Shown here piece after piece: positions 3,269 through 36,824 of a DNA stretch of 48,261 nucleotides. A program made the position numbers and the translations under genes. The stretch comes from Candidatus Woesebacteria bacterium. GTDB taxonomy: Bacteria; Patescibacteriota; Microgenomatia; UBA1400; UBA12028. The DNA lies in NCBI GenBank assembly GCA_040006915.1, contig JBDTWD010000007.1:1-48261 (forward strand), given 5' to 3'. The notes beneath the pieces are model-generated. The model searched no databases. It was given only the letters and a program-made list of their open reading frames with translations, and was not told the origin of the DNA. Every line of letters starts with the position of its first letter. Positions within the stretch are counted from its first letter, which is position 1.

Positions 3269-3275
3269 AGATCTA

Positions 3276-17754: not shown

Positions 17755-17786
17755 CACCAAAAGCTCAAGCAAAAAACAAGTCAAAC

Positions 17787-20700
17787 TTAGTTAATACCAT
17801 TGTAGAAATCTTTTACACGAGAGGGGAATTGTCTGTTGTTACAGAAATCATTTTGTCCGGTCGTTTTTTCTCCAGAATAGCGACGCAAGAATGCCAAGTA
17901 AGTAGGTTGGCCATTTAAAGTATTTAGAAAAACGGATACCTGCGGGGTGATACTTGCTGCTGTACGGCTTGAGTTTTGTGATATCACTCCAAAGTCTGCA
18001 ACATCATAGGCGCCAAACCCTGATTCATCTCCCCAGATGGAAAGTGCTAACCTAGGGCTGACACCGGCTTCTTTGGCTTTTTGGACCACATACTGACAAG
18101 CAGTCAATGTTCCATTCGGAGAGTAACTACCACTGGCGTCAACTTTATGAGCAATCAAAGTAAACTTCGGTGCTCCTCGTTTCGGACTATACGTACACGC
18201 AACACGTGAATAGAAGTTCTCATTACAAAGTCCGTCTCCTCCATCGTTCCCATTTTTCCAAGAAGCCACATCTAAAGCAGAAGAATAAAGTGCGGCTTTT
18301 TGTCCGACTGATCCTGCTCCAGCCTCACCAGCTGTACATGTATGAGTGGAATTAACGACTGCAATTCCGCCACCTGCAGTAATACCACCGCTCGTCCCGT
18401 TACAGGTAGCGACTTCAGTTTCAAGATATGCTAAATCCCCGCTACCCGGAGCTGGAGATGAACCAGGAGTCGCTCCTTTGGTACAAGCAGAGAGCCCCTC
18501 TTTTAAGAACGCTTCAAAGCCAGCATATGGAACTGTAGGAATATTATTGTTTGGACGTAAGACATTACACATTACTTCCCATAAGCCGCGTGCTAACATG
18601 CCGCCAGGAACTTGAGGATCTGGATTAAACTCACTGACTCCTTTGGTTCCAGTTACGCGACCTTCCAAAAAGACCGGACCTTGATCTACTGTCGTGCCAG
18701 CAGGAGGAGCATTCGGATCAGGAGGGGCGTTCGGATCGATAGGAGGAGCTTCACCACGATTCTCTCCAATTGGAGAGTTTGCCCTCACCGGAGGGGAGGA
18801 AATATCAAACCCAGAGCCAGAAAGTTGCAGATACCGAAATGGATTCCTTGGGCTCGTTTGCTCAGAACTTCGAGAGATGAAATGGAAATCAGGATCCTTG
18901 ATATTTTGATTCGGAACGAATGTTTGCACAAATGACAACTCATAGTTATTGATATTGCGATATTCTTCTGGAAGTAACAGGAAGGTTCGCACCGTCTGTG
19001 GATCACCAGCTCCAGTACCTCCTGCAGTGAGTCTAGCGACAGCAGTTTGCTTACGCGGCTGGACTGGATCAGGATTCCCTTCAGGGTTAATTAAATGATT
19101 GACTTGTGGGGCGGTCTCCCCGACGTAGTTTTCATAGCTACAACCAGCAAACGGAGTGCCAAGGGTTGCTCCAAAGTTAATTGGGGTTGTAAATTGGGCA
19201 TTAATACGTCGGACAATGATGCCACGATAGTCATCTGCGGGAATTTGGCTACACTTGGTACATTGGATATATTTTTTGTCGGAATTAGAGTTGAACGAGG
19301 GATTGCCGACCTTAGGAGTAAGACCCTTCACTTCATCTTGGGTTATGGTTTCAATGCGATCAATCGTTTCTTTGGGAAGAATCGATTTAATGACTTGGGT
19401 AAAACCGCCATCGTACGTTGGAAAGAAGGATTTTTTGTCAGGAATTGTCGCATTGTTTTCTTCCGCAAAGCCTGCTGGGACATAGACTTTGGTGATTTGA
19501 ATGCGATCGTTAATTGTCATGTTTAAAATTTCACTAGGATCAGTTTCAAGGGTACTAGGGGTGAGCCAAGTCACTTTGCTGGCAAAATCACTTGGTTGGT
19601 CTTCAGGCCGGTCCATGTAGCGGACAATATAGGCAGGCTTAAAGGCCCTAGGAGTGGTAACCTCAATAGATGTGAACGCTTGATACCAGTCTTTATTTTT
19701 TGTTTGGACGTTCTCTACCCATTCTGGAGAACAAGTAGCAGTTCCTGATACCTTAGGAATATTGTTCCCAACTTCTTTGTAGCTAGGAAACTGTGGCTTA
19801 GCGCCAGGGATGGGACGATATAACGCACATTCGCCTTTAGGAGCGGCGGATGCGGAGGCAATCTGAGGTGGCTTTTTTGAATCCGTCGTTGTGCCCACGG
19901 CATTCACAGCAATATTGCTGCGTTTGTATTCATCATCACACAGCTGCTTGATGGCAGAAAGATAGGTCATAGTGTTAGTACATTGCACCGTTTGGGAAGT
20001 CAGCTTTTTTGAAACACCGTTGGCTAGTGGGGAGATCAAGTCAGTGGCCTGGTTCAATTGTTTTTTTGTATAATTGGCTGAGAAGAATCCCTCAAGATCA
20101 TCCATGCGGCGAGTGGGATCTGTGGGTCGGGGAGAAGTGACATCCTGCATACGAAACAAGGGAATAACTGTCTTGGTGTTGTCAATGAACACATTCCCAA
20201 AGGCAATAAAACTACATGCAGGATCGTTTGGGGTACAGGGTCCATCAAAACGATTTGGACCAGGACCATTCGATGCTTTACTATCATAGCCTGGAAGAGC
20301 ATCATTTAGTTTACTTTCGTTAGTGATTTCTCCTTGGAGGGTAATCTTGTTTCCACACGTTAACATGTAACTGGCAGCCATGGCATTCTTTTGATCTGTT
20401 CCTTGCATGTCTTCAATTCCTGGATAAACAAACAGGGGATTTTGGCGACCATTACAGTCATCTGTTACTTCTTGTCCATTCTTGTCATAGGCTTTACCGT
20501 AGACATAAAAGAGCCAATCACTTTTTGTAACGTTACTGTTTTTACATGGATCAAGAATCAAGGTTGTTGCAGTCTCAACGCCAGCTGGCATTTGGTAGGT
20601 ATTCAAAAAATCGAGTTGATCCTTAATGCTGGGAGGCGGTTGGGTATTGGGATCAACACCCAGTCCACCAAAGTGGACCACTTTTTTCCCTGGACACATA

Positions 20701-21401
20701 TTAGTCTGTAAAAACTGCCAAGCATCTAAAGCTGGAAGTCCAACTCGTGATCCTGATAATTTAAACACGTTCGCAATCAATACGTCGGCACCAGCACAAC
20801 CACCGCTGCCTTTGAAGGAATTGATCCACGGAACTGGATCCCAGACACCGTTATATAAATCAGGGGGGGCCGGAGCGACTTTGAAGTATCCGGCACATCC
20901 AGAATGAACAGCATCAGCTAACGCGTTAAATTGCGTTGCATATTGTTTCGCAGCCTCGGAGAGACTAGTTGTTCCTTTATATTCTAGATCCAGGTTATTT
21001 AACTCATTTCCGACTCCCACGATAGTTCCTTGTGGGAAGACACCTTTGTTCGCACATAGTGCTGATCCATACGCTGCAAACTTGCTGGCAGGGGCGTTGA
21101 AATCAAATCCAACAATACGGATCGCAACTTTAGGACTTTGAGGAGTCGGATTATATGGAGCTTCATCTAATCCATTGGCAACTTGCACGATTCCTTTGAA
21201 TTGTTGTGGCACAAGTAGCGCTCCATTTAAAGCTTCTTGTGCCCCGCGATCAAAGCCAGCACCAGCGACTTCTGGTCCGATATCATCACGATGCGCAGGG
21301 GCAGCTTGTGCATATACTTGAGCAGAAGTCAGGAAAACGGACCCTAACAAGAGAGCAATAAAAAAAGAGAACGACGATACTACACGGCAGATCTGTCGCA
21401 T
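17787..21401 (-). CDS. giant secreted protein with a possible clan GH-A-like glycosidase motif near the N-terminus and a lysozyme/SLT-like C-terminal domain
   Basis: Signal peptide FFIALLLGSVFLTSAQVYAQA. GVGNELNN lies at residues ~130-136. A PPIDPNAPPDPNAPP repeat is present. The C-terminal ~105 aa (GVSPRLALSIWGDESGFGAY) carries a transglycosylase-like E-S motif. Confidence 0.8.
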   Translation of the reverse strand: MRQICRVVSSFSFFIALLLGSVFLTSAQVYAQAAPAHRDDIGPEVAGAGFDRGAQEALNGALLVPQQFKGIVQVANGLDEAPYNPTPQSPKVAIRIVGFDFNAPASKFAAYGSALCANKGVFPQGTIVGVGNELNNLDLEYKGTTSLSEAAKQYATQFNALADAVHSGCAGYFKVAPAPPDLYNGVWDPVPWINSFKGSGGCAGADVLIANVFKLSGSRVGLPALDAWQFLQTNMCPGKKVVHFGGLGVDPNTQPPPSIKDQLDFLNTYQMPAGVETATTLILDPCKNSNVTKSDWLFYVYGKAYDKNGQEVTDDCNGRQNPLFVYPGIEDMQGTDQKNAMAASYMLTCGNKITLQGEITNESKLNDALPGYDSKASNGPGPNRFDGPCTPNDPACSFIAFGNVFIDNTKTVIPLFRMQDVTSPRPTDPTRRMDDLEGFFSANYTKKQLNQATDLISPLANGVSKKLTSQTVQCTNTMTYLSAIKQLCDDEYKRSNIAVNAVGTTTDSKKPPQIASASAAPKGECALYRPIPGAKPQFPSYKEVGNNIPKVSGTATCSPEWVENVQTKNKDWYQAFTSIEVTTPRAFKPAYIVRYMDRPEDQPSDFASKVTWLTPSTLETDPSEILNMTINDRIQITKVYVPAGFAEENNATIPDKKSFFPTYDGGFTQVIKSILPKETIDRIETITQDEVKGLTPKVGNPSFNSNSDKKYIQCTKCSQIPADDYRGIIVRRINAQFTTPINFGATLGTPFAGCSYENYVGETAPQVNHLINPEGNPDPVQPRKQTAVARLTAGGTGAGDPQTVRTFLLLPEEYRNINNYELSFVQTFVPNQNIKDPDFHFISRSSEQTSPRNPFRYLQLSGSGFDISSPPVRANSPIGENRGEAPPIDPNAPPDPNAPPAGTTVDQGPVFLEGRVTGTKGVSEFNPDPQVPGGMLARGLWEVMCNVLRPNNNIPTVPYAGFEAFLKEGLSACTKGATPGSSPAPGSGDLAYLETEVATCNGTSGGITAGGGIAVVNSTHTCTAGEAGAGSVGQKAALYSSALDVASWKNGNDGGDGLCNENFYSRVACTYSPKRGAPKFTLIAHKVDASGSYSPNGTLTACQYVVQKAKEAGVSPRLALSIWGDESGFGAYDVADFGVISQNSSRTAASITPQVSVFLNTLNGQPTYLAFLRRYSGEKTTGQNDFCNNRQFPSRVKDFYNGIN

Positions 21402-21451: not shown

Positions 21452-21886
21452 TTATATCTGTGTATTAAAATCCATGAGTGTCGGGATGCCAGTAAACGTG
21501 GAAATAAAGCGCAGGATCACAAACGAGGCGAGAGCCACCACAATTCCTAGAATTGCGAAGCTAATGGCTTTCTTTCCGCTCTCCACACCTTTTGCATTGG
21601 CTCCAGCTGTGAGATATTGAAACGAACCGATCAGGAACATGACGAACGCAGCAATGCCGATGATTGTGATCGCAGTTGATAATACATTTGCAACTAAACA
21701 CTCAATTCCCTGAATGGTAGCGACGTCCGCGTTTGGATCTTTCGAGACAGTGGTTCCAGCCGTCACATAACCGCCAACACATTTTCCGGTCCAGGCGTTG
21801 GTTTGAGATTGAGCAAGAACAGGTGAGGCGAGTGTAATAAACATTGAACTACATACAAAGAAGATGGAGAGAGCTTTTGATTTCAT
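21452..21886 (-). CDS. T4SS pilin-fold protein P1 (VirB2/TrbC-like)
   Basis: Sec signal ending PVLA|QS, then two TM helices flanking YLTAGANAKGVESGKKAISFAILG. Confidence 0.75.
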   Translation of the reverse strand: MKSKALSIFFVCSSMFITLASPVLAQSQTNAWTGKCVGGYVTAGTTVSKDPNADVATIQGIECLVANVLSTAITIIGIAAFVMFLIGSFQYLTAGANAKGVESGKKAISFAILGIVVALASFVILRFISTFTGIPTLMDFNTQI

Positions 21887-21903
21887 AGCCTATTCATTAT
21901 AGC

Positions 21904-21933
21904 AAACAAAAGCCCCCGCTTTAAGCGAGGGCT
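21904..21933 (-). terminator. intrinsic terminator after pilin gene P2
   Basis: The minus strand reads AGCCCTCGC-TTAAA-GCGGGGGCT (one G:U pair) followed by TTTGTTTG. It starts about 25 nt after the P2 stop. Confidence 0.7.
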
Positions 21934-21958
21934 TTATTCATTTCAATTCAACACAAGG

Positions 21959-22360
21959 TTAGTATCCTTGTGGGATCGCAATTGGGCCACCGATGGTGGT
22001 TCCAAAGAAGCGATTCAAGACTGCACCGATAGCAAAGGCAGATGCGACGATTGCCAAACCAATGATGGCGTTGGTAATTTTCTGACGTGCACTTTCTGTC
22101 TTACTTTTATCTCCACCGGCAGTCAACCACTCAATTCCACCCCAGATCAGGTAGATGAATACCAAGAGTCCAACGATACCTAAGACAACTTGAAGAAGTC
22201 TAGTGATCAAGACTCCGATATCAGTGATCTTGAATCCAGCTTGACCAGCATCAATACTGATGGTGTCCTGTGGGGGGATTCCTTGGGCAAATACAGGACT
22301 AGCAAATGCAACGAGTGCACTTCCAGCTGCGGTTGCAGATGCAATTAATTTTTTTACCAT
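21959..22360 (-). CDS. T4SS pilin-fold protein P2 (candidate major subunit)
   Basis: Signal peptide ending PVFA|QG, core EWLTAGGDKSKTESARQKITNAIIGLAIV. An AAGGAG SD lies 7 nt upstream and an intrinsic terminator lies downstream. Confidence 0.8.
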   Translation of the reverse strand: MVKKLIASATAAGSALVAFASPVFAQGIPPQDTISIDAGQAGFKITDIGVLITRLLQVVLGIVGLLVFIYLIWGGIEWLTAGGDKSKTESARQKITNAIIGLAIVASAFAIGAVLNRFFGTTIGGPIAIPQGY

Positions 22361-22433
22361 AGCACTTCTCCTTAGATAATATTAGGTATGCTACTAGAGC
22401 TATTCTACCATGTTAGGCAACAAAGCCGCTCGA

Positions 22434-22453
22434 GTCAAGCAGGAAAGCTTGAC
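22434..22453 (-). other. perfect 7-bp stem-loop immediately after the P3 stop
   Basis: GTCAAGC-N6-GCTTGAC, 1 nt downstream of the stop at 22455, with no U-tract. It could be an mRNA processing or stability element ahead of P2. Confidence 0.35.
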
Positions 22454-22454
22454 A

Positions 22455-23012
22455 CTATGGGCAATTTGGCCACGCGAATGTGTGGGTTCCAGTCACACAA
22501 CTACACGGTTCGTAATGAACATAGGAAAGTCCGCCGACTCCCGCTGCTTCGCACTTGACCATGGCTGCTCCACCTCCGGTGCAGTAGCCTCCAGCTCCAC
22601 CGTCATTCACTGTTGCATTCACAGCAACATTTCCAGCACATGTTTGAGCCGTTGGATTTTGACCGCCAGTATTTCCGCCACCAGTTGTTCCTCCAAATCC
22701 TAGGTTAATTCGATCCCCGAGTCCGAAGAATCCTAAAAGGAGTCTAAAGATGGCAAACACGGATGCGAGAATCGCTAAACCAATGATTGCTTGGGTGATT
22801 TCACTTCGAGCAGTTTCGATTTTACTTTTGTCTCCACCTGCAGTAATCCAGTTAAATCCTCCCATCAGAAGATAGAGTAGGACAGCCAAAGTTCCGACGA
22901 CCAAAACTCCACCAGCACCCAGTTCAACTACTTTTCCGATGGTTTGCACCGGAGAGATAGTCAACGATTGAGCGCCGATATTTAAGTTGTTTTGTGCAAG
23001 TAAGATAAACAT
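22455..23012 (-). CDS. T4SS pilin-fold protein P3 with a Gly/Cys-rich C-terminal extension
   Basis: Trimmed to ATG 23012 (MFILLAQ...). Core NWITAGGDKSKIETARSEITQAIIGLAIL, then GGTTGGGNTGG and a 5-Cys tail. Confidence 0.75.
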   Translation of the reverse strand: MFILLAQNNLNIGAQSLTISPVQTIGKVVELGAGGVLVVGTLAVLLYLLMGGFNWITAGGDKSKIETARSEITQAIIGLAILASVFAIFRLLLGFFGLGDRINLGFGGTTGGGNTGGQNPTAQTCAGNVAVNATVNDGGAGGYCTGGGAAMVKCEAAGVGGLSYVHYEPCSCVTGTHTFAWPNCP

Positions 23013-23016
23013 AGAA

Positions 23017-23445
23017 TTAATTTTTACACGGACATCCAGGCATTGGAACACAAGTAGGTGCTTGTTGATTTGGACACTGAGGGATCTGTCCACCGCCGTT
23101 CGTTGCCGGAGTACCAGTTAAGTTGTCTGCAAAGTTGGGGTTGAGTAGTTGCAAACCGATGATTCCACCAATAAAGATACTGATTGCTACCGTTCCGACT
23201 AATACTAGCATTCCGATGACTGACTGCGTAATACGATTGCGGGCCGCTTCAATTTTTCCTTTGTCTCCACCTGCGGTAATCCACTCCAAAGCGCCAATGA
23301 CAAGCATGACGAGAAGAGCAAGGCCTCCAAGAGTCACAGCCGTACGCCAAACAGTGACGATAATGTTCGTCAAAGCTACGTTGGCAGGTCCGGTTCCAAA
23401 GGTTGGAACAACAGGATTCGTGATTTGAGCAATAAGTGTCAACAT
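23017..23445 (-). CDS. T4SS pilin-fold protein P4 with a short Cys-rich C-terminal tail
   Basis: MLTLIAQ..., core EWITAGGDKGKIEAARNRITQSVIGMLVL, tail CPNQQAPTCVPMPGCPCKN. Confidence 0.75.
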   Translation of the reverse strand: MLTLIAQITNPVVPTFGTGPANVALTNIIVTVWRTAVTLGGLALLVMLVIGALEWITAGGDKGKIEAARNRITQSVIGMLVLVGTVAISIFIGGIIGLQLLNPNFADNLTGTPATNGGGQIPQCPNQQAPTCVPMPGCPCKN

Positions 23446-23449
23446 AGGT

Positions 23450-23833
23450 TTATGGAGTTCCTCCTCCTGGAGCCAACTGTTGTAGCAGTTTTAATGGGTT
23501 TAATACATCGAGTCCTAGTACTCGTCCAACGACACCAACGATTCCATATCCAGCAATCACGACTACTAAACCTAAAGCGGCTTGGGTCATTTGGTTACGA
23601 GCGCTTTCAACTTTGCCTTTATCTCCACCAGAAGTAATCCAGGACAGGGCGGCAAAGATAAAGAAAATCAAGAACATTAACCCGGCAAGAGTGGTCAAAA
23701 AACCCAAGAAATTACTCAAGAAATTTTCAAGAGGAATTCCTCCAGCTTCGGCTCCCGTTCCTGGAGCAGGAGTAAATGCCGCTGTTGGAGGTTTTAAAGG
23801 ACCGAGTTGGAGTTGGGCTAAAAGTCGCGACAT
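23450..23833 (-). CDS. T4SS pilin-fold protein P5
   Basis: MSRLLAQ..., core SWITSGGDKGKVESARNQMTQAALGLVVV. Confidence 0.75.
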   Translation of the reverse strand: MSRLLAQLQLGPLKPPTAAFTPAPGTGAEAGGIPLENFLSNFLGFLTTLAGLMFLIFFIFAALSWITSGGDKGKVESARNQMTQAALGLVVVIAGYGIVGVVGRVLGLDVLNPLKLLQQLAPGGGTP

Positions 23834-23834
23834 A

Positions 23835-24206
23835 TTATGGTACAGCAGTAGGAATAACTGGATTTAAGATAAAGGTAGCATCACCAAACAACAAGAAACT
23901 GATAATGGCAGTGATTGCAAATGAACCGACAATCAAGATTAAGCCGATCAAGCTGTAGGAAAGTTGTTGCATTGCTTGCTCAGTCGCTTTGGCATTTCCA
24001 GCTGAATTTAAATAGGTATAACCAGCACCGATGATATTAAACAAACCAAACAGGCCAGCTATGATCGTAATCACTTTGATTAAGTTCGACGCGAAAATGA
24101 CAATGCCAATACCATCTGGTCCACCAGCTTGAGCATTAAAGATTGCCACTCCTGGGGGAGGACTGACAGTTCCAAAGATTTGTAAAACTGGAAGTATGAT
24201 AATCAT
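23835..24206 (-). CDS. T4SS pilin-fold protein P6 (divergent)
   Basis: Two TM helices flanking YLNSAGNAKATEQAMQQLSYSLIGLILIV. Confidence 0.65.
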   Translation of the reverse strand: MIIILPVLQIFGTVSPPPGVAIFNAQAGGPDGIGIVIFASNLIKVITIIAGLFGLFNIIGAGYTYLNSAGNAKATEQAMQQLSYSLIGLILIVGSFAITAIISFLLFGDATFILNPVIPTAVP

Positions 24207-24218
24207 AGGACTTGACTA

Positions 24219-24563
24219 TTATAGCGTTGAATTCAAAATCGGTACACCAGTGATCCTTTGGATGATTTGAATGATCCAGAATGCGGCAAAAATAACTAAA
24301 AATCCAATCACCGCTCCAGTAATCTGACCTTTCCCTTGTTCGACACTTTTGGCATTCCCTCCAGAAGAGATGATGGCAAATCCGCCACCAATCAAGAGGA
24401 AAAGTAAAATAATTCCGGCGATAATAAAGGCTAGAGGAACGAGAAGATTTAGAAAAGAAGAGATTGTGGCGTATTTCCCTTGTGCTCCTCCGACTGCGTT
24501 TACTCCCCCTTGGTCCAAGAACAGCTGATCTCCAATATTAAAAGCGAACAGTAATGCAGACAT
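24219..24563 (-). CDS. T4SS pilin-fold protein P7 (first gene of the array)
   Basis: Two TM helices flanking IISSGGNAKSVEQGKGQITGAVIGFLVIF. TATACT lies 7 nt upstream of the ATG. Confidence 0.7.
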   Translation of the reverse strand: MSALLFAFNIGDQLFLDQGGVNAVGGAQGKYATISSFLNLLVPLAFIIAGIILLFLLIGGGFAIISSGGNAKSVEQGKGQITGAVIGFLVIFAAFWIIQIIQRITGVPILNSTL

Positions 24564-24576
24564 ACACAGTAGTATA
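24564..24576 (-). promoter_or_regulatory. -10 box TATACT, 7 nt upstream of the P7 ATG (pilin array promoter, leaderless-type)
   Basis: Minus-strand TATACT at 24576-24571, spacer ACTGTGT, ATG at 24563. Confidence 0.45.
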
Positions 24577-24586
24577 CAATATATCT
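24575..24586 (+). promoter_or_regulatory. -10 box TACAAT, 6 nt upstream of the sigma-factor ATG (leaderless-type)
   Basis: TACAAT 24575-24580, spacer ATATCT, ATG 24587. It overlaps the divergent -10 box by 2 nt. Confidence 0.45.
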
Positions 24587-25132
24587 ATGGTTTTTTCGAA
24601 TGAAGCAGCTCTGATTGTGGCATTAAAAAGCGGTGAAAGCTCCATGGTTAGCCGATGGTATGAGGAGTCAAAACGAGCCCTCCTGGCTTTCTTCGTGCAT
24701 CAAGTGAGTAATGAAGCGGATGCTCAGGAGCTGGTTCATGACACGTATATGTCATGCCTTGCTTCACTGCCACTGTTTAGAGGAGAGTCGGGCCTATGGA
24801 GTTTTATGATTTCCATTGCTCGCCATGAACTGGCAGACTATTGGCGCAAAAAGTACGCCAAAAAAGCCATTGCGATGCTCCCATTCGGTCAAGAATTATT
24901 AGATACCGTGGAGCGTCCTCAGGGCAGTGAGCCACAAACCCAAGAAGTACAAGAATTACTACAAAATCTTCCCGGTGATATTGCTGAACTTTTAGCTCTA
25001 AAATACATTGACGGCTTATCAGTCAAAGAATTGGCCAAGAAATATAAATTAAGTTTTGCGGCGATGCAAAGTAAGTTGTATCGAGCTAAAGAAGTATTTA
25101 AAGAACAGTATGAACGAAACCCAATTTCTTAA
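24587..25132 (+). CDS. ECF-type RNA polymerase sigma-70 family factor
   Basis: Region 2: ELVHDTYMSCLASLPLFRGESGLWSFMISIARHELADYWRKK. Region 4 HTH: LALKYIDGLSVKELAKKYKLSFAAMQSKLYRAKE. I prefer ATG 24587 to 24554, which overlaps the divergent pilin gene. Confidence 0.85.
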   Translation: MVFSNEAALIVALKSGESSMVSRWYEESKRALLAFFVHQVSNEADAQELVHDTYMSCLASLPLFRGESGLWSFMISIARHELADYWRKKYAKKAIAMLPFGQELLDTVERPQGSEPQTQEVQELLQNLPGDIAELLALKYIDGLSVKELAKKYKLSFAAMQSKLYRAKEVFKEQYERNPIS

Positions 25133-29607: not shown

Positions 29608-30300
29608 ATGCAAAAACCCACTTTACCCAAACACATTGCTATCATCATGGATGGAAACCGTCGGTGGGCACGGCAAAACAAATTAAAAGCCTTGCAAGGA
29701 CATTCGTATGTCGTTGATCATTGTATCGAGCCATTGGTTGATCGATGTATTGAGCTTGGTATTCCATATTTAACCTTGTGGGCTTTTAGTACCGAAAACT
29801 GGGAACGGGATCAAGAGGAAGTTTCAGGATTGATGAACATCTTTCGTCGAGCATTTCAAAAGAAAGCCGAGGATCTGCACAAAAAAGGTGTGCGACTCAA
29901 TGTTTTAGGCGACATCGATGCATTTCCCAAAGACATTGCTGCGCAAGCAAAAGAATGGGTGAAGTTATCGACCACAAACACCAATATTACCGTATCATTT
30001 GCGTTAAACTACGGTGGACGAGCAGAAATATTGCATTCAGTCAACAAACTTTTAAAATCAAATCATCAATTGCCAATTCAGTCGGAAGACTTCGAAGAGA
30101 ATCTGTATACTGTCGGTCTACCTGATCCAGATTTATTGATCAGACCAGGTGGAGAGAAGCGTCTTTCTGGCTTCCTACCTTGGCAAACGGTTTATACTGA
30201 GCTGTATTTTACCGATATTTTAATGCCTGACTTCACCCCCGAGAAACTAGATGAGGCACTCGAAGAGTACGCCAAACGACAGCGTCGTTTTGGACACTAG
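29608..30300 (+). CDS. uppS: undecaprenyl-diphosphate synthase (cis-prenyltransferase)
   Basis: PKHIAIIMDGNRRWAR...LTLWAFSTENWERD...NYGGRAEI...DLLIRPGGEKRLSGFLPWQ. Confidence 0.95.
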   Translation: MQKPTLPKHIAIIMDGNRRWARQNKLKALQGHSYVVDHCIEPLVDRCIELGIPYLTLWAFSTENWERDQEEVSGLMNIFRRAFQKKAEDLHKKGVRLNVLGDIDAFPKDIAAQAKEWVKLSTTNTNITVSFALNYGGRAEILHSVNKLLKSNHQLPIQSEDFEENLYTVGLPDPDLLIRPGGEKRLSGFLPWQTVYTELYFTDILMPDFTPEKLDEALEEYAKRQRRFGH

Positions 30301-30593
30301 AGAATGCTAATTCCAAAGATTCTCTGCACAATCTGGGCCAGCCAGAATGAAGCAAACAGAAGAAGAAACCCAACTAGTGCTGCCGTAATCCGTTCTTTAC
30401 CTGCTTGTTGGGATTTCGGGTCCGCTGCTCCGGTTAACATTTCAAATCCACCCCAAATGAGCATAATAAAGAGAATAAGACCGCCGAATGAAAATAAGTA
30501 GGGAAGTAACTTGGAAATAATCCCTCTAGGAGTTGTCAGTTGTACATCTGGTCCTGCTGCTCCAAAAATTGCTTGATTAAGTTTAGTAAAGGT
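30297..30593 (-). repeat. copy 1 of a ~295-bp direct repeat encoding the shared C-terminal pilin module of P8/P9
   Basis: Aligns with 30935-31231. The 32-mer ATAATCCCTCTAGGAGTTGTCAGTTGTACATC is identical at 30517-30548 and 31155-31186. By hand alignment, 87 of 98 encoded residues are identical. Confidence 0.85.
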
Positions 30594-30890
30594 TGCACTG
30601 TTTACCCCCGGTCCAGTACCATCAGGGTTTTGACCGAATTGTTGGCACAGTTGTGAGGAAGTAGGAGGTCCGCAATAGTAGGCAACTGTTCCATCAGCAC
30701 AGGTCGTCGTTTGTGCAGTACAGACAGCAGGCTGACTCCCACCGTTACTGTCGACGACGCTTTGTAAGCAGGTAACAGGAACAGTACTCCACTGTCCACA
30801 GTTCACAGACGCAGCCTGAGCAAAACTATGCTGTCCACACAATAAAAAAATCCCAACCACAATCAGTAGTATTTTTCTTGTCTTTTTCAT
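30297..30890 (-). CDS. secreted Cys-rich domain fused to a T4SS pilin module (P8)
   Basis: Trimmed to MKKTRKILLIVVGIFLLCGQHSFAQA. An 8-Cys N-domain of about 75 aa is followed by WGGFEMLTGAADPKSQQAGKERITAALVGFLLLF. Confidence 0.75.
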   Translation of the reverse strand: MKKTRKILLIVVGIFLLCGQHSFAQAASVNCGQWSTVPVTCLQSVVDSNGGSQPAVCTAQTTTCADGTVAYYCGPPTSSQLCQQFGQNPDGTGPGVNSATFTKLNQAIFGAAGPDVQLTTPRGIISKLLPYLFSFGGLILFIMLIWGGFEMLTGAADPKSQQAGKERITAALVGFLLLFASFWLAQIVQRIFGISIL

Positions 30891-30934
30891 TGCATAGCTA
30901 GTATGCCTTAAACTGAAGAAAGTTACAGAATCAT

Positions 30935-31231
30935 TTAGAGGATGCTGATTCCAAAGACCTTTTGCACAATCTGTGCTAGCCAGAAGGAGGAGAAGAGTAG
31001 CAAGAAACCAATAATGGCGGCCGTAATTCGTTCTTTTCCTGCTTGTTGGGATTTCGGGTCTGCTGCCCCGGTTAACATTTCGAATCCACCCCAAAGGATC
31101 ATGATAAACAAAATCAGTCCTGCAAAGGAAAAGAGATAGGGAAGCAATTTTGAGATAATCCCTCTAGGAGTTGTCAGTTGTACATCAGGCCCAGCTGCCC
31201 CAAAAATTGCGGCATTTAATTTGGAAAACAA
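30935..31231 (-). repeat. copy 2 of the ~295-bp direct repeat (P9 C-terminal pilin module)
   Basis: See copy 1. Confidence 0.85.
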
Positions 31232-31867
31232 CAGTGGCGTTGCTCCCTCAGTTGGATTAATGGGGGCATTTGAAATTGGTGGAATCGTTGGCTGTGTTGC
31301 TGAACACCCAGAAGTAGTATTCACTGCCCATCCACAACAGCGTCTTCCCGCTATTGGTGGATTGTATTCTGCATTGGACTGACAGTCACATGTTTCCGTT
31401 GCCGTGTTATATGCATGTCCACAAGTTTTTGCGATGGTTGCCGGTGCGGTTGCATATCCTTGGCAGCTCGTACCCTGATCGTTATTGGCTTGGCCGATAA
31501 CTCCTTGCAAAACATAGGTCGCTCCAGGTTGAGGCGCCGTGTTTGCAAAGGCGTTTGGAGCAGAGACTGCACAAGTGTAGGTAACGGTACTTGTTGTACT
31601 CAGTTGTTTGGTGCACTCAGACTCATTGATTCCGGTTTGATGAATAATGGTTCCAGAGCCCGTTAAAAATATCTCAAGACCAATAGGGAAGTGCTGACTG
31701 GGGAAAGGAGAGTTTGTTTGAAACGTAACGGTGGCGTTATATCCAGTAGAGGTAATTGAAGTGTTTGAGACTCCACAACTAGAGGCAAAAACAGCGGTTG
31801 GTAAAACGAAACCGACAAAAAGAAGAACGGTGAGTGACAAGATAGTGGTGGTGAAAATCTTCTTCAT
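30935..31867 (-). CDS. secreted Cys-rich domain fused to a T4SS pilin module (P9)
   Basis: Trimmed to MKKIFTTTILSLTVLLFVGFVLPTAVFA. A Cys/Thr-rich N-domain of about 185 aa is followed by a C-terminal module nearly identical to that of P8. Confidence 0.75.
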   Translation of the reverse strand: MKKIFTTTILSLTVLLFVGFVLPTAVFASSCGVSNTSITSTGYNATVTFQTNSPFPSQHFPIGLEIFLTGSGTIIHQTGINESECTKQLSTTSTVTYTCAVSAPNAFANTAPQPGATYVLQGVIGQANNDQGTSCQGYATAPATIAKTCGHAYNTATETCDCQSNAEYNPPIAGRRCCGWAVNTTSGCSATQPTIPPISNAPINPTEGATPLLFSKLNAAIFGAAGPDVQLTTPRGIISKLLPYLFSFAGLILFIMILWGGFEMLTGAADPKSQQAGKERITAAIIGFLLLFSSFWLAQIVQKVFGISIL

Positions 31868-31871
31868 ACGA

Positions 31872-33059
31872 TTATGTTCCAAATCCAGGGATATGGAGGA
31901 GTGTTACTCCGATAAACTGCAGAATAATGATTGAGAAGATCACAAAGAACAGTCCCATAACTGCGGCTGTAACCATTTCTTGTCCTTCTTTGACTCGGGT
32001 TGGATCTCCACTACTCGTTGTCAGTAAGAAAGCTCCATAGAGGATGGAGAGGAGGACGAAACCTCCCGCAATTCCAAGGCCAATACGTAAGAATGAGGTG
32101 ACAATTCCTTCCGCAGAAGTTTTCACACATCCAAACGCTGTCCAGTATCCTTGGCTGTTCGGATCAGTGATGGTATCACCACCACCTATACATTTGCGGC
32201 ATTCAACTTGATCAGGAGGAGCTGCTTGATTACAGAGGATAAAGGCTGGAGCTGCGCCCCCAGGATTTGGGATAGGAAAATTATCGGTTGGGTCATCATC
32301 TTGTTCCAAAGAACTTTTTAGGACATTGAACGTAGTAGAACAATTTCGATGATCAGTGAGTGTATTTAGAGAGCCGCTTCCGTTCCCCACTTCTAATGCG
32401 TAGTCTCCATCTGGCCATTTTTCCATGATCCCACCTGTTAGAACCTCTCCATTAAAAGTGAGAGGTACCTTTGCCAGAAGAGGATTACCTGGTATGCGAA
32501 TATATGCGGCGTATCCTTGAGAATGATTTAAAGGACCTCCAGGGACGGTAATATTGACGTTAATCAGATCACCATTGCGGGTGAGGCCAACCTGCGGGGT
32601 TCCGCAGTTATAGGCAACTGGTTTTTGGAATCGTACGTTTGTACTACAGACAAGAGCATCGGCTACACCAGCTTCTCTTTCGATTTGAACATGAAAGATA
32701 GCAACGGTGTCACTTTGTTTATTAAACATGGACGCTAAGTTACTTGTAATATCAACTGATAGATTTCCGTTTGATAGCTGTGAGGAGGTCAAAGGGAAAA
32801 ATTTATCACTAAGAGGTACTGTTGGATCGAATGCATGAATAAAGTAATCGTCAGCTCCATCAGTGGCTGGTGCACCATCTTTTTTTACGTCATTTGCAGA
32901 AAGCCTGACGGCTTCAGGGTTAATAAAGTAATCGTTATTAGCGGGGGTATTAGTTTGCAGGGTACAGTTATCTGCGGCAAAGGCTTGAGTTTTCTCCATC
33001 GCAAAAAATAGCCCTGTGAAAAGGAAAACGGCAACCGCAAATTTGCCTAGAAGCTTCAT
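31872..33059 (-). CDS. secreted ~300-aa domain fused to a T4SS pilin module (P10)
   Basis: Start at MKLLGKFAVAVFLFTGLFFA (track start 33077 is also possible). The C-terminus reads YGAFLLTTSSGDPTRVKEGQEMVTAAVMGLFFVI between two TM helices. Confidence 0.7.
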   Translation of the reverse strand: MKLLGKFAVAVFLFTGLFFAMEKTQAFAADNCTLQTNTPANNDYFINPEAVRLSANDVKKDGAPATDGADDYFIHAFDPTVPLSDKFFPLTSSQLSNGNLSVDITSNLASMFNKQSDTVAIFHVQIEREAGVADALVCSTNVRFQKPVAYNCGTPQVGLTRNGDLINVNITVPGGPLNHSQGYAAYIRIPGNPLLAKVPLTFNGEVLTGGIMEKWPDGDYALEVGNGSGSLNTLTDHRNCSTTFNVLKSSLEQDDDPTDNFPIPNPGGAAPAFILCNQAAPPDQVECRKCIGGGDTITDPNSQGYWTAFGCVKTSAEGIVTSFLRIGLGIAGGFVLLSILYGAFLLTTSSGDPTRVKEGQEMVTAAVMGLFFVIFSIIILQFIGVTLLHIPGFGT

Positions 33060-33116
33060 ACCTTGTAATTTTACCATTCTCTTGTATTTAAGGGGAAGGA
33101 AAACGCAAATACTGGT

Positions 33117-33428
33117 TTACTCTGTTAACGTTTGCAGGTTCTCGGTATTATCTTGGAAAACTTTAGAAACTTGCTCTGCAGACTCTTCCTCACTTTGGGT
33201 AAGCTTCTCTTCTACATCATCAGCTGCGTCAGCAGCATCAATCAAGGTTTGCCCTGACTGGACTTCTGTTGCTTGGACTTTTGCCACAAATGTATTAAAA
33301 CGCTCAAAATCAGCAGGCGAAAGATCCTCAGGATACCCAGAAAGTTCGGCGACTAGTATATCGAGTACGTCACTTTCGACCTCTTTTGTTTCTTTAATTT
33401 CAGTAATCAATTGTTGTTTTGTAGGCAT
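33117..33428 (-). CDS. small, very acidic hypothetical protein
   Basis: 103-aa ORF rich in D/E, in an operon position upstream of P10. Confidence 0.5.
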   Translation of the reverse strand: MPTKQQLITEIKETKEVESDVLDILVAELSGYPEDLSPADFERFNTFVAKVQATEVQSGQTLIDAADAADDVEEKLTQSEEESAEQVSKVFQDNTENLQTLTE

Positions 33429-33451
33429 ACGGTTTCCTTTTTTAAAGTACG

Positions 33452-34951
33452 TTATTTTGCATCAATAAATGAGGCAATACGCTTTCGTAGCCCCGACAAA
33501 AATTTTCCGTTATTCTTTCGTTTTTCTCCCTCAGAACGAGCTTTTTGGGCAGCCAAGAAATCTTTGTCAGCGCTGGTTTCTCCTAACTCTGCTTTCGTAT
33601 TCAGTTTGGTTTGTAGCTTTTGAATTCTTTCATCAAGTTTAGCGATAGCTTCAGTTTTTTCTACTAGAGCACCTTGAGAAACTTCCCCACGAAGGAGGGC
33701 ATCGACTGATAAATGAAGTTGTCTTGATTCATATTCTCTTTGGTTTTCGAGGCCTTTGAGATATAAGCTTGTCCCGAGATTGAGTGTATCGAGGACTTTT
33801 TGCGTTACATCCGCACGCTTTTGATAGAGAGTACCCTCTACTTTAAGGTATATGTTTTCTACGGCACCAGTAGCTGTAGCCATATTTCGTTCGAACCCAT
33901 CGGCAATGGTGTTTCGCTTCTGGGCGATCATTACACCAATATTGTCGATCCTGTATTCCACGTATCCAACAGATCGGTCGAAAGCTGCTTTCGTGTGTTC
34001 GGGTAATGCGTGGAGAGTTCCAACAACTGCTCCTGCTGTATCAACTGAATTTTGAACAAATGTTACAAATGTTTCAGCTCCCTTGTCTTTCTTAGCTTTA
34101 GCTGCAGCTTGGCGTTCAGCAATTTTCTTTGCTCGTTCTTCCACTTTTGTATCTCTCACTTCTGCTTTTCTCTCCCAAGCTCTGAGGTTTGCACTTGCGG
34201 TGGGAGTCGCTTCTGGAGAAGGAGGCTGAGCTCCTGGAGTTGAATTTCTTTGGGCTTCTAATGCTTGTAGAGTACTTCTTAAAGTGTTGAGTCTGGTTTC
34301 GTATCTGGTTCTCATTTCATCCCCAACTGGGAGAGCATTTACGTAGACCTCATTTTCCTGAATATCGGCTTGCACAGTTGCGATTTCACGTTCGAGTGGA
34401 GGGGTCGTAGGCTCAACTTCTGTCTGGATAGCGTCAACTGCTGGGGCCGCAGGTATAACTTCAGGTGTGGCAGCAGTTTCAGCTCTTGGTACAGCCAGAT
34501 TGGGATACCTTACTTCTTGATTCGTGCTGGGTTGTGTGCCTGCGCTCGCAAAAGTCGTCAAATCCGGATCTGGAAGTTCTCTTGTTGCGTCGGTATTGAG
34601 AGTGTCTGGAAGAAGGCTTTCTAAACTTGGTAATTCATCATCATCGGAGGGCTTGGGGGCTTGAGTTTCCTGATATTGTTTTAGGCGACTTTTTTCTGGA
34701 GGGGCCGATTGTGTTTCACTACTTGGGGCAGTGATACTCGCAAATTTAGCAGCTATACGTTCTTTATCTTTTGCGATTTTTTCAGTCTCAGAAGTTGTCT
34801 CACCATTCGTTGGAGTGGATGGAGCTCTTTTTAATATCCAATCCTTAAAAAAACTTCTCGCAGATTTTCGTTCAGAGGGTGGAGTACTTTGATCGTTTGT
34901 TTCTTTTCGAAGATCTTTCAGTTTTGGAGGTTGCGAATCTTGAGGTTCCAT
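33452..34951 (-). CDS. hypothetical protein with a disordered Pro/Ser/Thr/Glu-rich N-half and a helical C-half
   Basis: Trimmed to ATG 34951 (MEPQDSQPPK). The longer track version would overlap the divergent gene. An AAGGA SD lies 5 nt upstream, and TGCTATAAT lies further upstream. Confidence 0.6.
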   Translation of the reverse strand: MEPQDSQPPKLKDLRKETNDQSTPPSERKSARSFFKDWILKRAPSTPTNGETTSETEKIAKDKERIAAKFASITAPSSETQSAPPEKSRLKQYQETQAPKPSDDDELPSLESLLPDTLNTDATRELPDPDLTTFASAGTQPSTNQEVRYPNLAVPRAETAATPEVIPAAPAVDAIQTEVEPTTPPLEREIATVQADIQENEVYVNALPVGDEMRTRYETRLNTLRSTLQALEAQRNSTPGAQPPSPEATPTASANLRAWERKAEVRDTKVEERAKKIAERQAAAKAKKDKGAETFVTFVQNSVDTAGAVVGTLHALPEHTKAAFDRSVGYVEYRIDNIGVMIAQKRNTIADGFERNMATATGAVENIYLKVEGTLYQKRADVTQKVLDTLNLGTSLYLKGLENQREYESRQLHLSVDALLRGEVSQGALVEKTEAIAKLDERIQKLQTKLNTKAELGETSADKDFLAAQKARSEGEKRKNNGKFLSGLRKRIASFIDAK

Positions 34952-34981
34952 AAAAATCCTTTTGTTCAAATATGAGGCACA

Positions 34982-34990
34982 ATTATAGCA
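34982..34990 (-). promoter_or_regulatory. extended -10 promoter TGCTATAAT for the 33452..34951 operon (leadered, with SD)
   Basis: Minus-strand TGCTATAAT about 30 nt upstream of ATG 34951, with an AAGGA SD in between. Confidence 0.45.
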
Positions 34991-35072
34991 TTTCTCTCTC
35001 TTCACTATGGCAGGAGCCAAATGTAAGATCAAGTGGACGGATTTTCGGGTAGGAAAATGGGGAAGGTTTGGG

Positions 35073-35084
35073 TAGTATAGAGGA
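35073..35084 (+). promoter_or_regulatory. -10-like TAGTAT, 6 nt upstream of the GTG start of the SpoIID-like gene
   Basis: TAGTAT-AGAGGA-GTG. Confidence 0.35.
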
Positions 35085-36824
35085 GTGAAACGAACCCGTT
35101 TTTTTCTAGCGTTCATTTTTGTCTGTCTTCTTACCTTGAGTATAGGTTTTGGAAAGTTCTCGGGGATTGTGTTTGCTGATCAAATTGATGATCTCCAACA
35201 CCAGATTGATGATTTGGCACATTTAAAGCAGCTCTCAGAAGCCGCTACCACTCCGTTGGAAAAGCAAGTTGCTGATCTAGATGCAAAAATTAAGAGTGCC
35301 CAAGCAGGGATTCTCTCTGCACAAAAGCAATCTGAAGAAGCGGGGAAACAAATCCAGATTCGTGATGCCAATATAGGGACAACGTATTCACTTTTTTCAG
35401 CTCGAGTTGCAGATCGGTATCGCACCCAACGACAAATTGATCCGTTCATGATTGTGCTTGCCAGTCAGGACTTGGCAACCATGACGAACGCCTTGACCTA
35501 TCAGTTCCAGGCGGCTCAACGTGATTCATTAGAATTAAAACGATTGGCAACTGAAATTTCCTCTTTGGAAGTGGATAAGAAAAAATATGAAGAGACCAAA
35601 GTGAAATTGGCAGCCATGCAAAAGACTTTGGACAGCAGTGCCACGTTCTTTAAAGGAGAGATTAACAAAGCCAAAAAATATCAGCAAGAACTGGCTGGGA
35701 AAATTGCGGCTCTCTCCGCCCAACAGCAAGCAATCTTGGCTGAGCGTAGCGGAACGGCGACCACTACTGTGGGTGATGTGCCATTAGCTGACGATCCTGC
35801 CAGTCAAGTCAGTTATAATCCAGGATTCTCTCCTGCCTACGCAGTGTTTTCTTTCGGAGCCCCCCATTTTAAAGGATTATCTCAATATGGTGCATATGGA
35901 CGGGCTAAGTCTGGTCAGAACGCGGAAGCCATTCTCCAAGCGTATTACGGTGGAGCCGAACTGAAGAAAGACTACAACACAGGAGTTAACATCAGTGTTC
36001 AAGGATATGGATCAGTAGATATTGAAACGTATACCAAGCGTATTTATGAAATGCCTTCTTCCTGGGGAGATTCTGGTGGATTTGAAGCCCTTAAAGCGCA
36101 AGCCGTAGCCGCTCGAACCTATGCACTTTCCTATACAAATAACGGCAGCAAAAGTATATGTGCCACTGAAAGCTGTCAGGTCTATAAACCCAGTAACAAG
36201 GGAGGGAAGTGGGATGAAGCCGTGAATGCCACCCGCGGTTGGGTGTTAGTGAAAGGTGGGCAACCGATTTCAGCTTTGTATGCTTCAACCTCTGGAGGAT
36301 ATCAGCAAAGTTACACCACTCAAGGGTATTCAACCCCGGGATTTTGGGATACGACCAGTGATTGGAGTCGGTGGGCAGAGGGAGCGTACGAAGGAAAAGG
36401 GAAAGGGAATAGTCCATGGTTTTATAAAGCCTGGTACAAAAGCCGTAGTGGGGACAGCTGTGGAAGAAGTCATCCCTGGCTTACCCAAGCCGAATTTGCT
36501 GATATCTTGAATGCTTGGGTAGTACGAGAGAAAGGATCGAGTGGGGATGTCGGACGAGTCACTCCAATCGGAAGTTGTAATGGAGGGAATCCGTTTAGTT
36601 TGGATGAGATGAAAAACAAAGCCAATGAATTAGGAGGAGCGTTTACATCTGTCTCCAGTGTCCGAGTGGAACACGGAAGTAATGGTTTCACCAAAAATGT
36701 GGTTTTGGACACCAATAAGGGGTCTGTTACTATTCCTGGTGCAGAATTTAAAACCGCTTTTAACTTGCGCGCACCTGGTCGAATCTCAGTGAAGGGCAAC
36801 TTGTTTGGGATTGAAAAGAAGTAG
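35085..36824 (+). CDS. SpoIID/LytB-domain protein with an N-terminal coiled coil
   Basis: GTG start, signal/anchor FFLAFIFVCLLTLSIGFG, heptad-like region. SpoIID motifs GLSQYGAYGRA, ALKAQAVAARTYAL, CATESCQVY, ALYASTSGGY. Confidence 0.85.
   Translation: MKRTRFFLAFIFVCLLTLSIGFGKFSGIVFADQIDDLQHQIDDLAHLKQLSEAATTPLEKQVADLDAKIKSAQAGILSAQKQSEEAGKQIQIRDANIGTTYSLFSARVADRYRTQRQIDPFMIVLASQDLATMTNALTYQFQAAQRDSLELKRLATEISSLEVDKKKYEETKVKLAAMQKTLDSSATFFKGEINKAKKYQQELAGKIAALSAQQQAILAERSGTATTTVGDVPLADDPASQVSYNPGFSPAYAVFSFGAPHFKGLSQYGAYGRAKSGQNAEAILQAYYGGAELKKDYNTGVNISVQGYGSVDIETYTKRIYEMPSSWGDSGGFEALKAQAVAARTYALSYTNNGSKSICATESCQVYKPSNKGGKWDEAVNATRGWVLVKGGQPISALYASTSGGYQQSYTTQGYSTPGFWDTTSDWSRWAEGAYEGKGKGNSPWFYKAWYKSRSGDSCGRSHPWLTQAEFADILNAWVVREKGSSGDVGRVTPIGSCNGGNPFSLDEMKNKANELGGAFTSVSSVRVEHGSNGFTKNVVLDTNKGSVTIPGAEFKTAFNLRAPGRISVKGNLFGIEKK

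Follow-up and report, generated by a model that had tools for sequence, protein, structure and literature searches.

A conserved pilin-like hairpin with different extracytoplasmic heads in a three-gene operon of a Woesebacteria-type Patescibacterium

We analyzed 48,261 nt of chromosomal DNA from a Candidatus Woesebacteria bacterium (GenBank assembly GCA_040006915.1, contig JBDTWD010000007.1, positions 1 to 48,261; hereafter the window), in which three tandem minus-strand genes, P8, P9 and P10, are flanked by a mevalonate/UppS block and a SpoIID gene. Each gene encodes a Sec-type signal, a Cys-containing ectodomain (the head) and a C-terminal two-helix hydrophobic hairpin (the anchor). We consider it probable that these are headed proteins of the PF18895 pilin family in which a conserved hairpin has been combined with replaced heads, that P8 and P9 stem from an old duplication followed by short gene conversion, and that their heads are binding modules on the cell surface or on a pilus.

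According to this explanation, P10, P9 and P8 would form a tightly packed operon of VirB2-like pilin-domain proteins in a Microgenomates/Woesebacteria-type Patescibacterium. The Sec pathway would export each protein, leaving the C-terminal hairpin in the membrane with its basic loop inside, while a disulfide-rich or beta-sandwich head would be held outside on a Pro/Thr/Gly linker. The operon would be the local version of an ancient syntenic locus, arranged as SpoIID, a P10-family gene, one or two anchor-A pilins and UppS. A P8-like headed anchor would have duplicated long ago (synonymous divergence, dS, of ~1.1), and the copy would now be P9, carrying another head in the slot of a headless pilin. 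The heads would then act as binding modules, carried either by the cell surface or by a type IV secretion system (T4SS)-type pilus (along its length or at its tip) that is built with the seven small pilins of the same genome.

Domain architecture and family membership

The genes, their parts and the longest exact match between P8 and P9 are as follows.

30297-30890, minus strand: P8, open reading frame (ORF) of 197 aa
30594-30812, minus strand: P8 head, ~73 aa with 6 Cys
30300-30593, minus strand: P8 anchor module, 98 codons, PF18895 36.3 bits
30935-31867, minus strand: P9, ORF of 310 aa
31427-31783, minus strand: P9 orphan N-domain, ~119 aa with 4 Cys
31283-31426, minus strand: P9 CCGW repeat, a six-Cys unit (CG..Y..C.C....CCGW....C), AlphaFold confidence (pLDDT) 80-92
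30938-31231, minus strand: P9 anchor module, 98 codons, PF18895 37.5 bits, helices at 234-266 and 271-305
30517-30548 (P8) and 31155-31186 (P9), minus strand: exact 32-mer GATGTACAACTGACAACTCCTAGAGGGATTAT, encoding DVQLTTPRGII, with 0 matches expected by chance
31872-33077, minus strand: P10, ORF of 401 aa, start inferred from homologs
32322-32963, minus strand: P10 head, beta-sandwich domains at residues 33-145 and 156-246 (395-aa numbering)
31914-32252, minus strand: P10 C-terminal module, Cys stalk 270-313 and helical hairpin 316-382

P10 and P9 are 4 nt apart, P9 and P8 are 44 nt apart, and P8 overlaps the stop of the convergent UppS gene with its own stop codon. A promoter and terminator scan over 30100-33500 returned counts at chance level. 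The initial annotation, made from the sequence by eye, had ended the feature at 33059; because the MVKLQGM start of P10 is conserved in three homologs (P0039, P0040 and P0059), the gene most likely begins at 33077, and the feature ends there.

The three signal peptides, judged classical by eye, have cleavage sites after MKKTRKILLIVVGIFLLCGQHSFAQA and before A in P8, after MKKIFTTTILSLTVLLFVGFVLPTAVFA and before S in P9, and after ...FAMEKTQAFA and before A in P10. The heads that follow are ~73, ~184 and ~287 aa long in P8, P9 and P10, in agreement with the order of signal, head and C-terminal pilin module, and with the head lengths, that had been annotated. Cys counts in the mature heads are even throughout, with 6 in P8 (7 when the signal peptide is included), 10 in P9 and 8 in P10, so that an annotated count of at least 8 Cys was correct for the P9 head and too high for that of P8.

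P8 consists of its signal peptide (residues 1-26), a 6-Cys head (27-99) that resembles no known family, and the anchor module (100-197). P9 is longer: its signal peptide (1-28) is followed by the orphan N-domain (29-147) and a single CCGW repeat (148-195), which a Pro/Thr linker connects to the anchor (213-310). Within the anchor, a motif preceding the first transmembrane helix (the pre-TM motif, LNAAIFG..LTTPRGII) is followed by transmembrane helix 1 (TM1), the basic loop PKSQQAGKER and TM2. Alignment of the last 98 codons of P8 and P9 bears out the near-identity first noticed by eye: 87/98 residues and 236/297 nucleotides (79.5%) are identical, the exact 32-nt match is present, and the heads do not align (BLASTP E=1.2). 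In a repeat scan the same region appears as a 293-nt direct repeat (30298-30590 and 30936-31228, 81% identical), and identity drops to the random level beyond ~290 nt upstream of the stop. This limit coincides with a family-wide domain boundary, 'F..LN.AIFG...LTTPRG', and is therefore not a fresh breakpoint.

Both anchors match PF18895 (T4SS_pilin, the VirB2-like pilin of Patescibacteria; gathering score 26.6 bits) above threshold, P8 with 36.3 bits (E 6e-9) and P9 with 37.5 bits (E 2.5e-9). P10 falls below it (18.3 bits, E=0.0024), and we accept its pilin-like hairpin because of its AlphaFold model (pLDDT 84.6, helices 316-348 and 353-382) and because several P10-family homologs carry a PF18895 hit themselves. 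The two hydrophobic helices that PF18895 expects are present in the models of both P9 and P10, and the short basic loop joining them reads PKSQQAGKER in P9. A pilin module in all three proteins, as annotated, is thus upheld by the curated threshold for P8 and P9, and for P10 by model and homologs.

The P10 head contains two FN3/Ig-like beta-sandwich domains, and it is joined to the hairpin by a 4-Cys stalk ending in WTAFGC. In a Foldseek search, the head resembles tandem FN3/cytokine-receptor (Ig-like) pairs (E ~2e-6), a predicted fold that is generic for binding or spacing. Across 38 P10 homologs, Cys276, Cys287, Cys290, Cys311 and the WTAFGC motif are invariant. Full-length homologs are limited to close relatives (P0039 65%, P0040 50%, P0041 41% and P0044 35% identical); in the remainder, conservation is confined to the C-terminal ~130 aa, comprising the 4-Cys stalk and hairpin, and the heads differ.

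The P9 head is a composite. Its CCGW repeat, which has no Pfam family match, is 59% identical to the membrane-proximal repeat of a homolog in another genome (P0003/L009) and, like the hairpin (pLDDT 85-94), is modelled confidently. The orphan N-domain has a pLDDT below 50. A convincing homolog of this domain was not found among 1.84 billion representative proteins, where three weak matches had E-values from 1e-6 to 8e-5: the best, P0076, has just a sub-threshold STAND-NTPase similarity, and the other two, P0077 and P0078, bear MBG_3 repeats of surface proteins. When metagenome contigs were scanned with P9, distant anchors (~60% identical) were recovered and the P9 head was not found.

A conserved locus with variable heads

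A search with P9 retrieved 37 proteins, all with PF18895, in which the C-terminal ~98-aa module is 55-90% identical and the N-termini are very different. From the contigs of these homologs, together with a scan of GTDB species representatives, we assembled related loci (L004, L007 and so on), which belong to Woesebacteria, Microgenomates, Cerribacteria and Paceibacterota metagenome-assembled genomes (MAGs). The titles of many of these MAGs (L006-L035) read 'uncultured Pseudomonadales bacterium'; their gene content, with pilin arrays, mevalonate genes and synteny to Woesebacteria and Microgenomates contigs, is clearly that of Patescibacteria, and the labels of these TPA assemblies look wrong.

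The locus is conserved in ~30 Patescibacteria species, with a divergent SpoIID gene, then a P10-like gene and one or two anchor-A pilins, and finally the convergent UppS gene. In nearly all loci where the flank is present, the P10-like gene is directly upstream of the anchor-A pilin, and in L036, the window's closest relative, P10 is 65% identical to that of the window over its full length. Between the window and L004 the anchor is 83-89% identical, depending on the alignment span, and UppS is 85% identical; across species the ranges are 55-90% for the anchor and 42-85% for UppS. Judged from these identities, the anchor evolves about as slowly as its neighbour UppS.

The heads behave differently. 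Anchor-A genes range from headless (82-123-aa genes) to carriers of a head of up to 320 aa with 31 Cys, and 26 of the 38 anchor-A genes have a head of at least 35 aa. BLAST groups these heads into 13 clusters, of which 8 have a single member, and many gene pairs combine anchors that are 70-89% identical with heads that are not alignable. A head of the commonest type contains 1-6 copies of the six-Cys repeat CG..Y..C.C....CCG[WY]....C; CCGW repeats are visible in P0003, P0005, P0006, P0008 and P0013. At the level of sequence, these comparisons show that the hairpin is under strong purifying selection and that heads have been gained, lost, repeated or replaced between species. The conserved anchor with different heads that had been noticed in P8 and P9 is thus a property of the whole family.

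Where would the heads be located? The positive-inside loop, the signal peptides and the even Cys counts suggest that both termini are outside and that the heads are displayed, and the Cys-rich C-terminal tails of two array pilins, described below, support the same orientation. F- and T-pilus structures have the pilin termini on the outer face of the filament, with the loop lining the lumen. In the same orientation, a head at the N-terminus would coat a VirB2-type filament or form its cap. The pre-TM motif and the loop are conserved to a degree that speaks for specific contacts, whether with partner pilins, with lipid or with the assembly machine, and against a passive anchor. A binding role for the heads is plausible.

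Several observations weigh against incorporation into a pilus. The operon lies ~23 kb from the T4SS core (P8 start to the end of the M23 gene; ~28 kb to PrgI), and its position between the envelope genes SpoIID and UppS fits a non-pilus envelope role too. Filament formation by any PF18895 member is not reported in PMC12102498, PMC12857230 or PMC10633639, and a 20-30 kDa head on each subunit may clash sterically with a VirB2-type filament. The TrbC/VirB2 family PF04956 (gathering score 27.9 bits) is not reached by P8 (15.0 bits, E 0.029) or P9 (10.3 bits, E 0.85). Neither Foldseek nor PDB sequence searches gave a significant pilin match: against the PDB, the P9 model returned nothing significant, its best pilin being the Aeropyrum conjugation pilus 8dfu (template modelling score 0.65 over 70 columns, E=3.1, in a comparison where helical hairpins are nonspecific), and sequence searches with the P9 head, the P10 head and an anchor profile gave chance-level matches.

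The proteins might accordingly not be pilus subunits at all. In that alternative the hairpin would be just a membrane anchor or oligomerization module of envelope or surface proteins that cooperate with SpoIID and UppS, perhaps when the wall is remodelled, when the cell divides or when a surface layer is attached. We regard this as a serious but doubtful alternative. It draws on the missing match to solved pilins, on the distance from the T4SS core and on a SpoIID/UppS synteny that is conserved across classes, yet it leaves the hairpin and loop conserved far beyond the need of a passive anchor, at a level comparable to that of UppS. It also has to accommodate P8 and P9 scores above a curated pilin-family threshold, and the fact that the closest paralog of this anchor (69 bits) is the first gene of the sigma-linked small-pilin array, which ties both loci together.

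Age of the P8/P9 duplication and traces of gene conversion

The P8 and P9 anchors differ by a dS of 1.13 and a nonsynonymous divergence (dN) of 0.086, giving a dN/dS of ~0.08. By this measure the shared cassette is not recent, and purifying selection is the main reason for its 89% protein identity. Between-species ortholog pairs are synonymously saturated, with a proportion of synonymous differences (pS) of 0.74-0.85; the pS of 0.585 between P8 and P9, compared with 0.62-0.74 across the split from L036, indicates a P8/P9 split no older than the L036 split. With synonymous sites saturated in all available ortholog pairs, we compared heads and anchors by their relative dN. Orthologous heads evolve ~1.6-2 times faster than anchors (0.48 versus 0.30 for P8-L007, and 0.30 versus 0.14 for P10-L036).

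P8 is an ordinary ortholog of the 194-aa terminal gene found in relatives. Local BLAST comparison of its head with homologous proteins from relatives gave full-length orthologs with head identities of 74% (P0015/L042), 68% (P0019/L007; 68-72% across measurements) and 49% (P0018). Its anchor is ~74-79% identical to the orthologs where measured (L007 and L042), and against L007 alone the anchor is ~74-77% and UppS 74% identical. The P8 head has therefore been inherited together with its anchor in L007 and L042. The initial annotation had set a mosaic boundary against proportional divergence of the two genes in relatives, and these values place P8 on the side of proportional divergence; P9 is a lineage-specific gene.

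In the slot of P9, the relatives L007, L008, L011/L012 and L042 have a headless pilin of 104-123 aa (113 aa in both L007 and L042, where it is upstream of the P8-type gene), and in L036 a headless pilin begins directly after P10. We considered whether the P9 anchor descended from this headless middle pilin and rejected it, since P9 has terminal, headed-type residues at every diagnostic column. The P9 anchor clusters with P8 with 88% bootstrap, as compared with 0% for P8 with the terminal gene of L007 (L007_194). The best reading of P9 is that a headed anchor was duplicated in this lineage and that the copy bears a different, composite head made of the orphan domain and one CCGW repeat. A duplication followed by head replacement, as initially annotated, fits P9; the proposed recency does not fit an anchor with this dS and saturated transmembrane codons.

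Synonymous differences are unevenly distributed along the two anchors. Among the codons for residues identical in P8 and P9, those with identical codons number 10/14 in the pre-TM segment that holds the 32-mer, 5/14 in TM1, 17/22 in the loop, and 8/22 in TM2 plus tail, compared with a between-species baseline of ~0.32-0.45 in every anchor segment. The pre-TM and loop patches together (27/36) exceed the transmembrane helices (13/36; Fisher P=0.002), and the P8-P9 loop (17/22) exceeds the pooled between-species loop (29/74; P=0.003). The derived residues PYLFS, SQQAGKER and SFW are exclusive to P8 and P9. These patterns suggest that short gene-conversion tracts in the pre-TM segment and the cytoplasmic loop probably keep parts of both anchors alike.

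Three results count against conversion or a simple history. The signal amounts to a few dozen codons, for which selection on synonymous sites is an alternative. Two headed pilins of other loci, L009_419 and L011_370, have anchors that are 88% identical although their synonymous sites are saturated (identity 26/79) and their heads are not directly alignable, so high anchor identity needs no conversion. Finally, nine informative sites clustered in TM1 link P9 with L004_392 and P8 with L007_194, a pattern for which older paralogy with conversion is a better fit than one simple, late duplication. The L009 (5981-7294) and L011 (6188-7300) pilins come from different loci of the same MAG (binchicken_co347_42), and their anchors have a common lineage-specific C-terminus, LVELILRVDIL.

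A history with no recombination at all, in which the heads of two old paralogs, P8 and P9, diverged or grew by ordinary domain accretion and the 32-mer and patches reflect chance, codon bias or mRNA constraint, is in our judgement unlikely. It can appeal to the low dN/dS, to an anchor as slow as UppS and to the L009/L011 pair, as well as to the 32-mer itself, a run that is just marginally unusual given the overall P8/P9 identity (codon-column permutation P=0.036). It accounts poorly for loop and pre-TM patches above the between-species baseline at the same codons, for derived residues held by P8 and P9 exclusively, and for the headless gene in the P9 slot of relatives. Nor would it readily explain why the P9 anchor is nearer to P8 than to any ortholog, though the P8 head predates that split.

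A recent or ongoing cassette exchange, in which homologous recombination at the conserved 3′ anchor (perhaps at the 32-mer) moves heads between expressed genes or silent copies and generates phase or antigenic variation of the pilE/pilS or R64 shufflon kind, appears improbable. The sharp identity boundary with its exact 32-mer, the two patches of raised synonymous identity (one of which contains the 32-mer) and the head turnover across species are what such a system would leave behind; the age of the anchors, with a dS of ~1.1 and saturated transmembrane codons, and the stable inheritance of the P8 head with its anchor in L007 and L042 are not. The orthologous sites of the 32-mer have 7 mismatches in L004 and 11 in L007, so the nucleotide sequence is not a conserved DNA element, and an exact 32-mer was not found in public metagenome and genome contig collections; hence no alternative head junctions were seen.

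The machinery for such an exchange was likewise not found. In the 48-kb window, tblastn revealed no silent cassettes or further head or anchor fragments, the P8/P9 anchor pair being the sole repeat and in direct orientation, and a repeat scan revealed no shufflon-type inverted repeats. Pfam and NCBIfam searches identified no recombinase or integrase in the ORFs scanned, including those at ~15.9-25.1 kb and 33.1-46.9 kb; ORFs on the UppS side (~25.2-30.3 kb) were identified from translations and the Pfam labels of syntenic loci only. The sole recombinase hint in the window is a sub-threshold IS1182-like match at 11457-12470. The homologous recombination proposed by the initial annotation is thus suggested solely as short conversion tracts inside the anchor, and not as a cassette system; that reading was right in outline, with its conserved anchor, replaced heads and duplication, and wrong on timing and mechanism.

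An assembly artefact, in which a collapsed or chimeric repeat produced the shared 3′ cassette, is extremely improbable: nothing specific points to it beyond the contig being a metagenome-type assembly, and the two copies are just 81% identical in DNA, neither reading frame is broken, and many independent assemblies have the same gene order.

Adjacent anchors have been compared in other genomes as well. In L007 (6333-7300), synonymous identity between adjacent anchors is raised in TM1 (12/16), unlike the patches in the window, which hints at independent short conversion events. A general concerted evolution of anchors within genomes was considered as an explanation and holds partly, as the close pairs L011/L012 and L007/L042 retain positional orthology and the L009/L011 pair is synonymously saturated.

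Neighboring genes, known systems and significance

The TrsD-like and PrgI genes and the seven-gene pilin array are at distances of ~6 to 28 kb from the operon; virB4 itself is missing from the window.

21452-24563, minus strand: seven small PF18895 pilin genes, an array downstream of the divergent ECF sigma factor
24554-25132, plus strand: extracytoplasmic function (ECF) sigma factor, divergent from the pilin array
81-7304, minus strand: part of a T4SS core cluster, with components that match those described in PMC12102498
81-1178, minus strand: TrsD/VirB4-N-like gene of the core cluster, a weak match (E 2e-7) far below the cut-off
1175-2230, minus strand: PrgI/VirB3 of the core cluster
2261-3397, minus strand: unknown gene of the core cluster
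3276-7304, minus strand: M23 peptidase of the core cluster, 1342 aa
23017-23445, 23450-23833 and 22455-23093: array pilins with a short conserved N-terminal motif, which is also present in L007 (6333-6674), L036 (2091-2261) and L013 (6932-7294)

The VirB4 ATPase itself is probably just outside the window, beyond its left edge. The seven array pilins are likely major or companion pilins, and the arrangement of sigma factor and pilin array recurs in L007, L008, L011, L013, L014, L025 and L027. Two array pilins, at 22455-23093 and 23017-23445 (minus strand), have Cys-rich C-terminal extensions with 6 and 4 Cys, respectively, which suggests that either end of the hairpin can receive a head. These two ORFs overlap as listed, and translation of the first probably begins at the internal MFILLAQ.

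Headless and array pilins are without a classical signal peptide; their first residues follow a brief common pattern, M-x-x-L-[IL]-A-[QA], exemplified by MLTLIAQ, MSRLLAQ, MFILLAQ, MPNLIAAAC, MISLIAQAC and MIGMLLAQ. This recurrent start may serve as a dedicated leader or as a signal for processing.

The pilin array is followed immediately downstream, on the minus strand, by genes for a 1204-aa secreted protein (17787-21401) and a 631-aa polytopic membrane protein (15873-17768), neither of which has a Pfam or NCBIfam match. The polytopic protein has a Cys-rich N-terminus, CTGANPPALCAGCAGSPNQSACAWCK..., and is a candidate for a divergent form of VirB6, which is reported to be 'scarce' in Microgenomatia.

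On the other side of the operon, between SpoIID and P10, the minus strand at 33117-35116 encodes two proteins without a family match, one acidic and 103 aa long, the other 554 aa long and of low complexity, with an abundance of Pro, Glu and Ala. Homologs of the two were not found in the ~30 related loci, except in L036, which has a 104-aa counterpart of the 103-aa gene and a partial upstream ORF. The gene beyond them (35085-36824, plus strand) encodes a SpoIID-domain protein of ~580 aa with a coiled-coil N-terminus, and its divergent pairing with a P10-family gene recurs in ~25 species. Published work describes VirB1 as missing from most pilin-bearing Patescibacteria. The SpoIID-domain peptidoglycan-remodelling enzyme could therefore be a functional partner, or the pairing could be mere synteny of envelope genes.

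How do the headed proteins compare with known systems? FimH and PapG, the tip adhesins of chaperone-usher pili, combine an N-terminal receptor-binding domain with a C-terminal pilin domain. By analogy, they share with the proteins described here a variable head on a conserved polymerization or anchoring domain, encoded beside plain pilins. Their fold and assembly differ, with Ig-like donor-strand exchange in place of an alpha-helical hairpin. The R64 PilV shufflon and Neisseria pilE/pilS similarly join a constant pilin part to alternative variable parts by homologous or site-specific recombination at a conserved sequence. In contrast to these, the window holds no silent cassettes, sfx-like inverted repeats or recombinase that we could find, and the variation is between species over long times rather than within a clone.

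The nearest precedent is within the same family. Patescibacteria, and Microgenomatia especially, have a monoderm-type T4SS and arrays of VirB2-like pilins (PMC12102498, PMC12857230, PMC10633639), and such a pilin array is essential in Ca. Southlakia epibionticum (Wang et al. 2023, PMC10633639). The proteins studied here share with these arrays (PMC12102498, PMC10633639) the Pfam family, the hairpin, the multiple paralogs and the abundance in Microgenomatia, and this window has co-occurring PrgI/TrsD-type genes and a tandem array as well. The described arrays consist of small, divergent pilins with a within-array identity of 25% on average and 54% at most (Quinonero-Coronel et al. 2025, PMC12102498), whereas two anchors here are 89% identical and are encoded at a separate SpoIID-UppS locus, not beside virB4. 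We found no mention of N-terminal domains in the descriptions of those arrays; here, Cys-rich or FN3-like heads of 73-290 aa are present. As cited in PMC12102498, the VirB2 paralogs of Bartonella and Anaplasma were tandemly amplified and have diversified, a change believed to widen the interaction with hosts; they vary within the pilin, whereas here the pilin module is conserved and the appended domains vary. Resemblance of the hairpin to TrbC/VirB2 (PF04956) and to the Mbov_0395 pilin-like conjugal transfer proteins of Mycoplasma integrative and conjugative elements (NF045849) is weak, below curated thresholds and remote at best.

The family itself is thus a known one, the VirB2-like pilins of Patescibacteria, while pilin modules with interchangeable heads at a SpoIID-UppS locus were not found described. 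A further-reaching possibility, which we offer tentatively and would not expect to hold, is that headed pilins are the host- or surface-recognition subunits of the Patescibacteria T4SS pilus, that the strongly conserved hairpin plugs interchangeable heads (CCGW repeats, FN3 pairs and orphan domains) into one filament, and that duplication and recombination at the anchor re-tool the binding specificity of each lineage. If true, no class of adhesin-pilin fusions would have been described in T4SS-type pili before this one, which would also be a genomic marker for the host range of uncultured episymbionts.

The T4SS of Patescibacteria and its pilin array are essential in the single system examined by genetics, and the headed pilin locus provides concrete candidates for determinants of specificity in host recognition and attachment. 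The head type at the SpoIID-UppS locus is a simple comparative marker that may be correlated with host or habitat, and both the uncatalogued six-Cys CCGW repeat and the P10-family stalk (WTAFGC) are domains worth defining. Should these be mere membrane-anchored envelope proteins, the finding would be one of domain shuffling on a conserved anchor.

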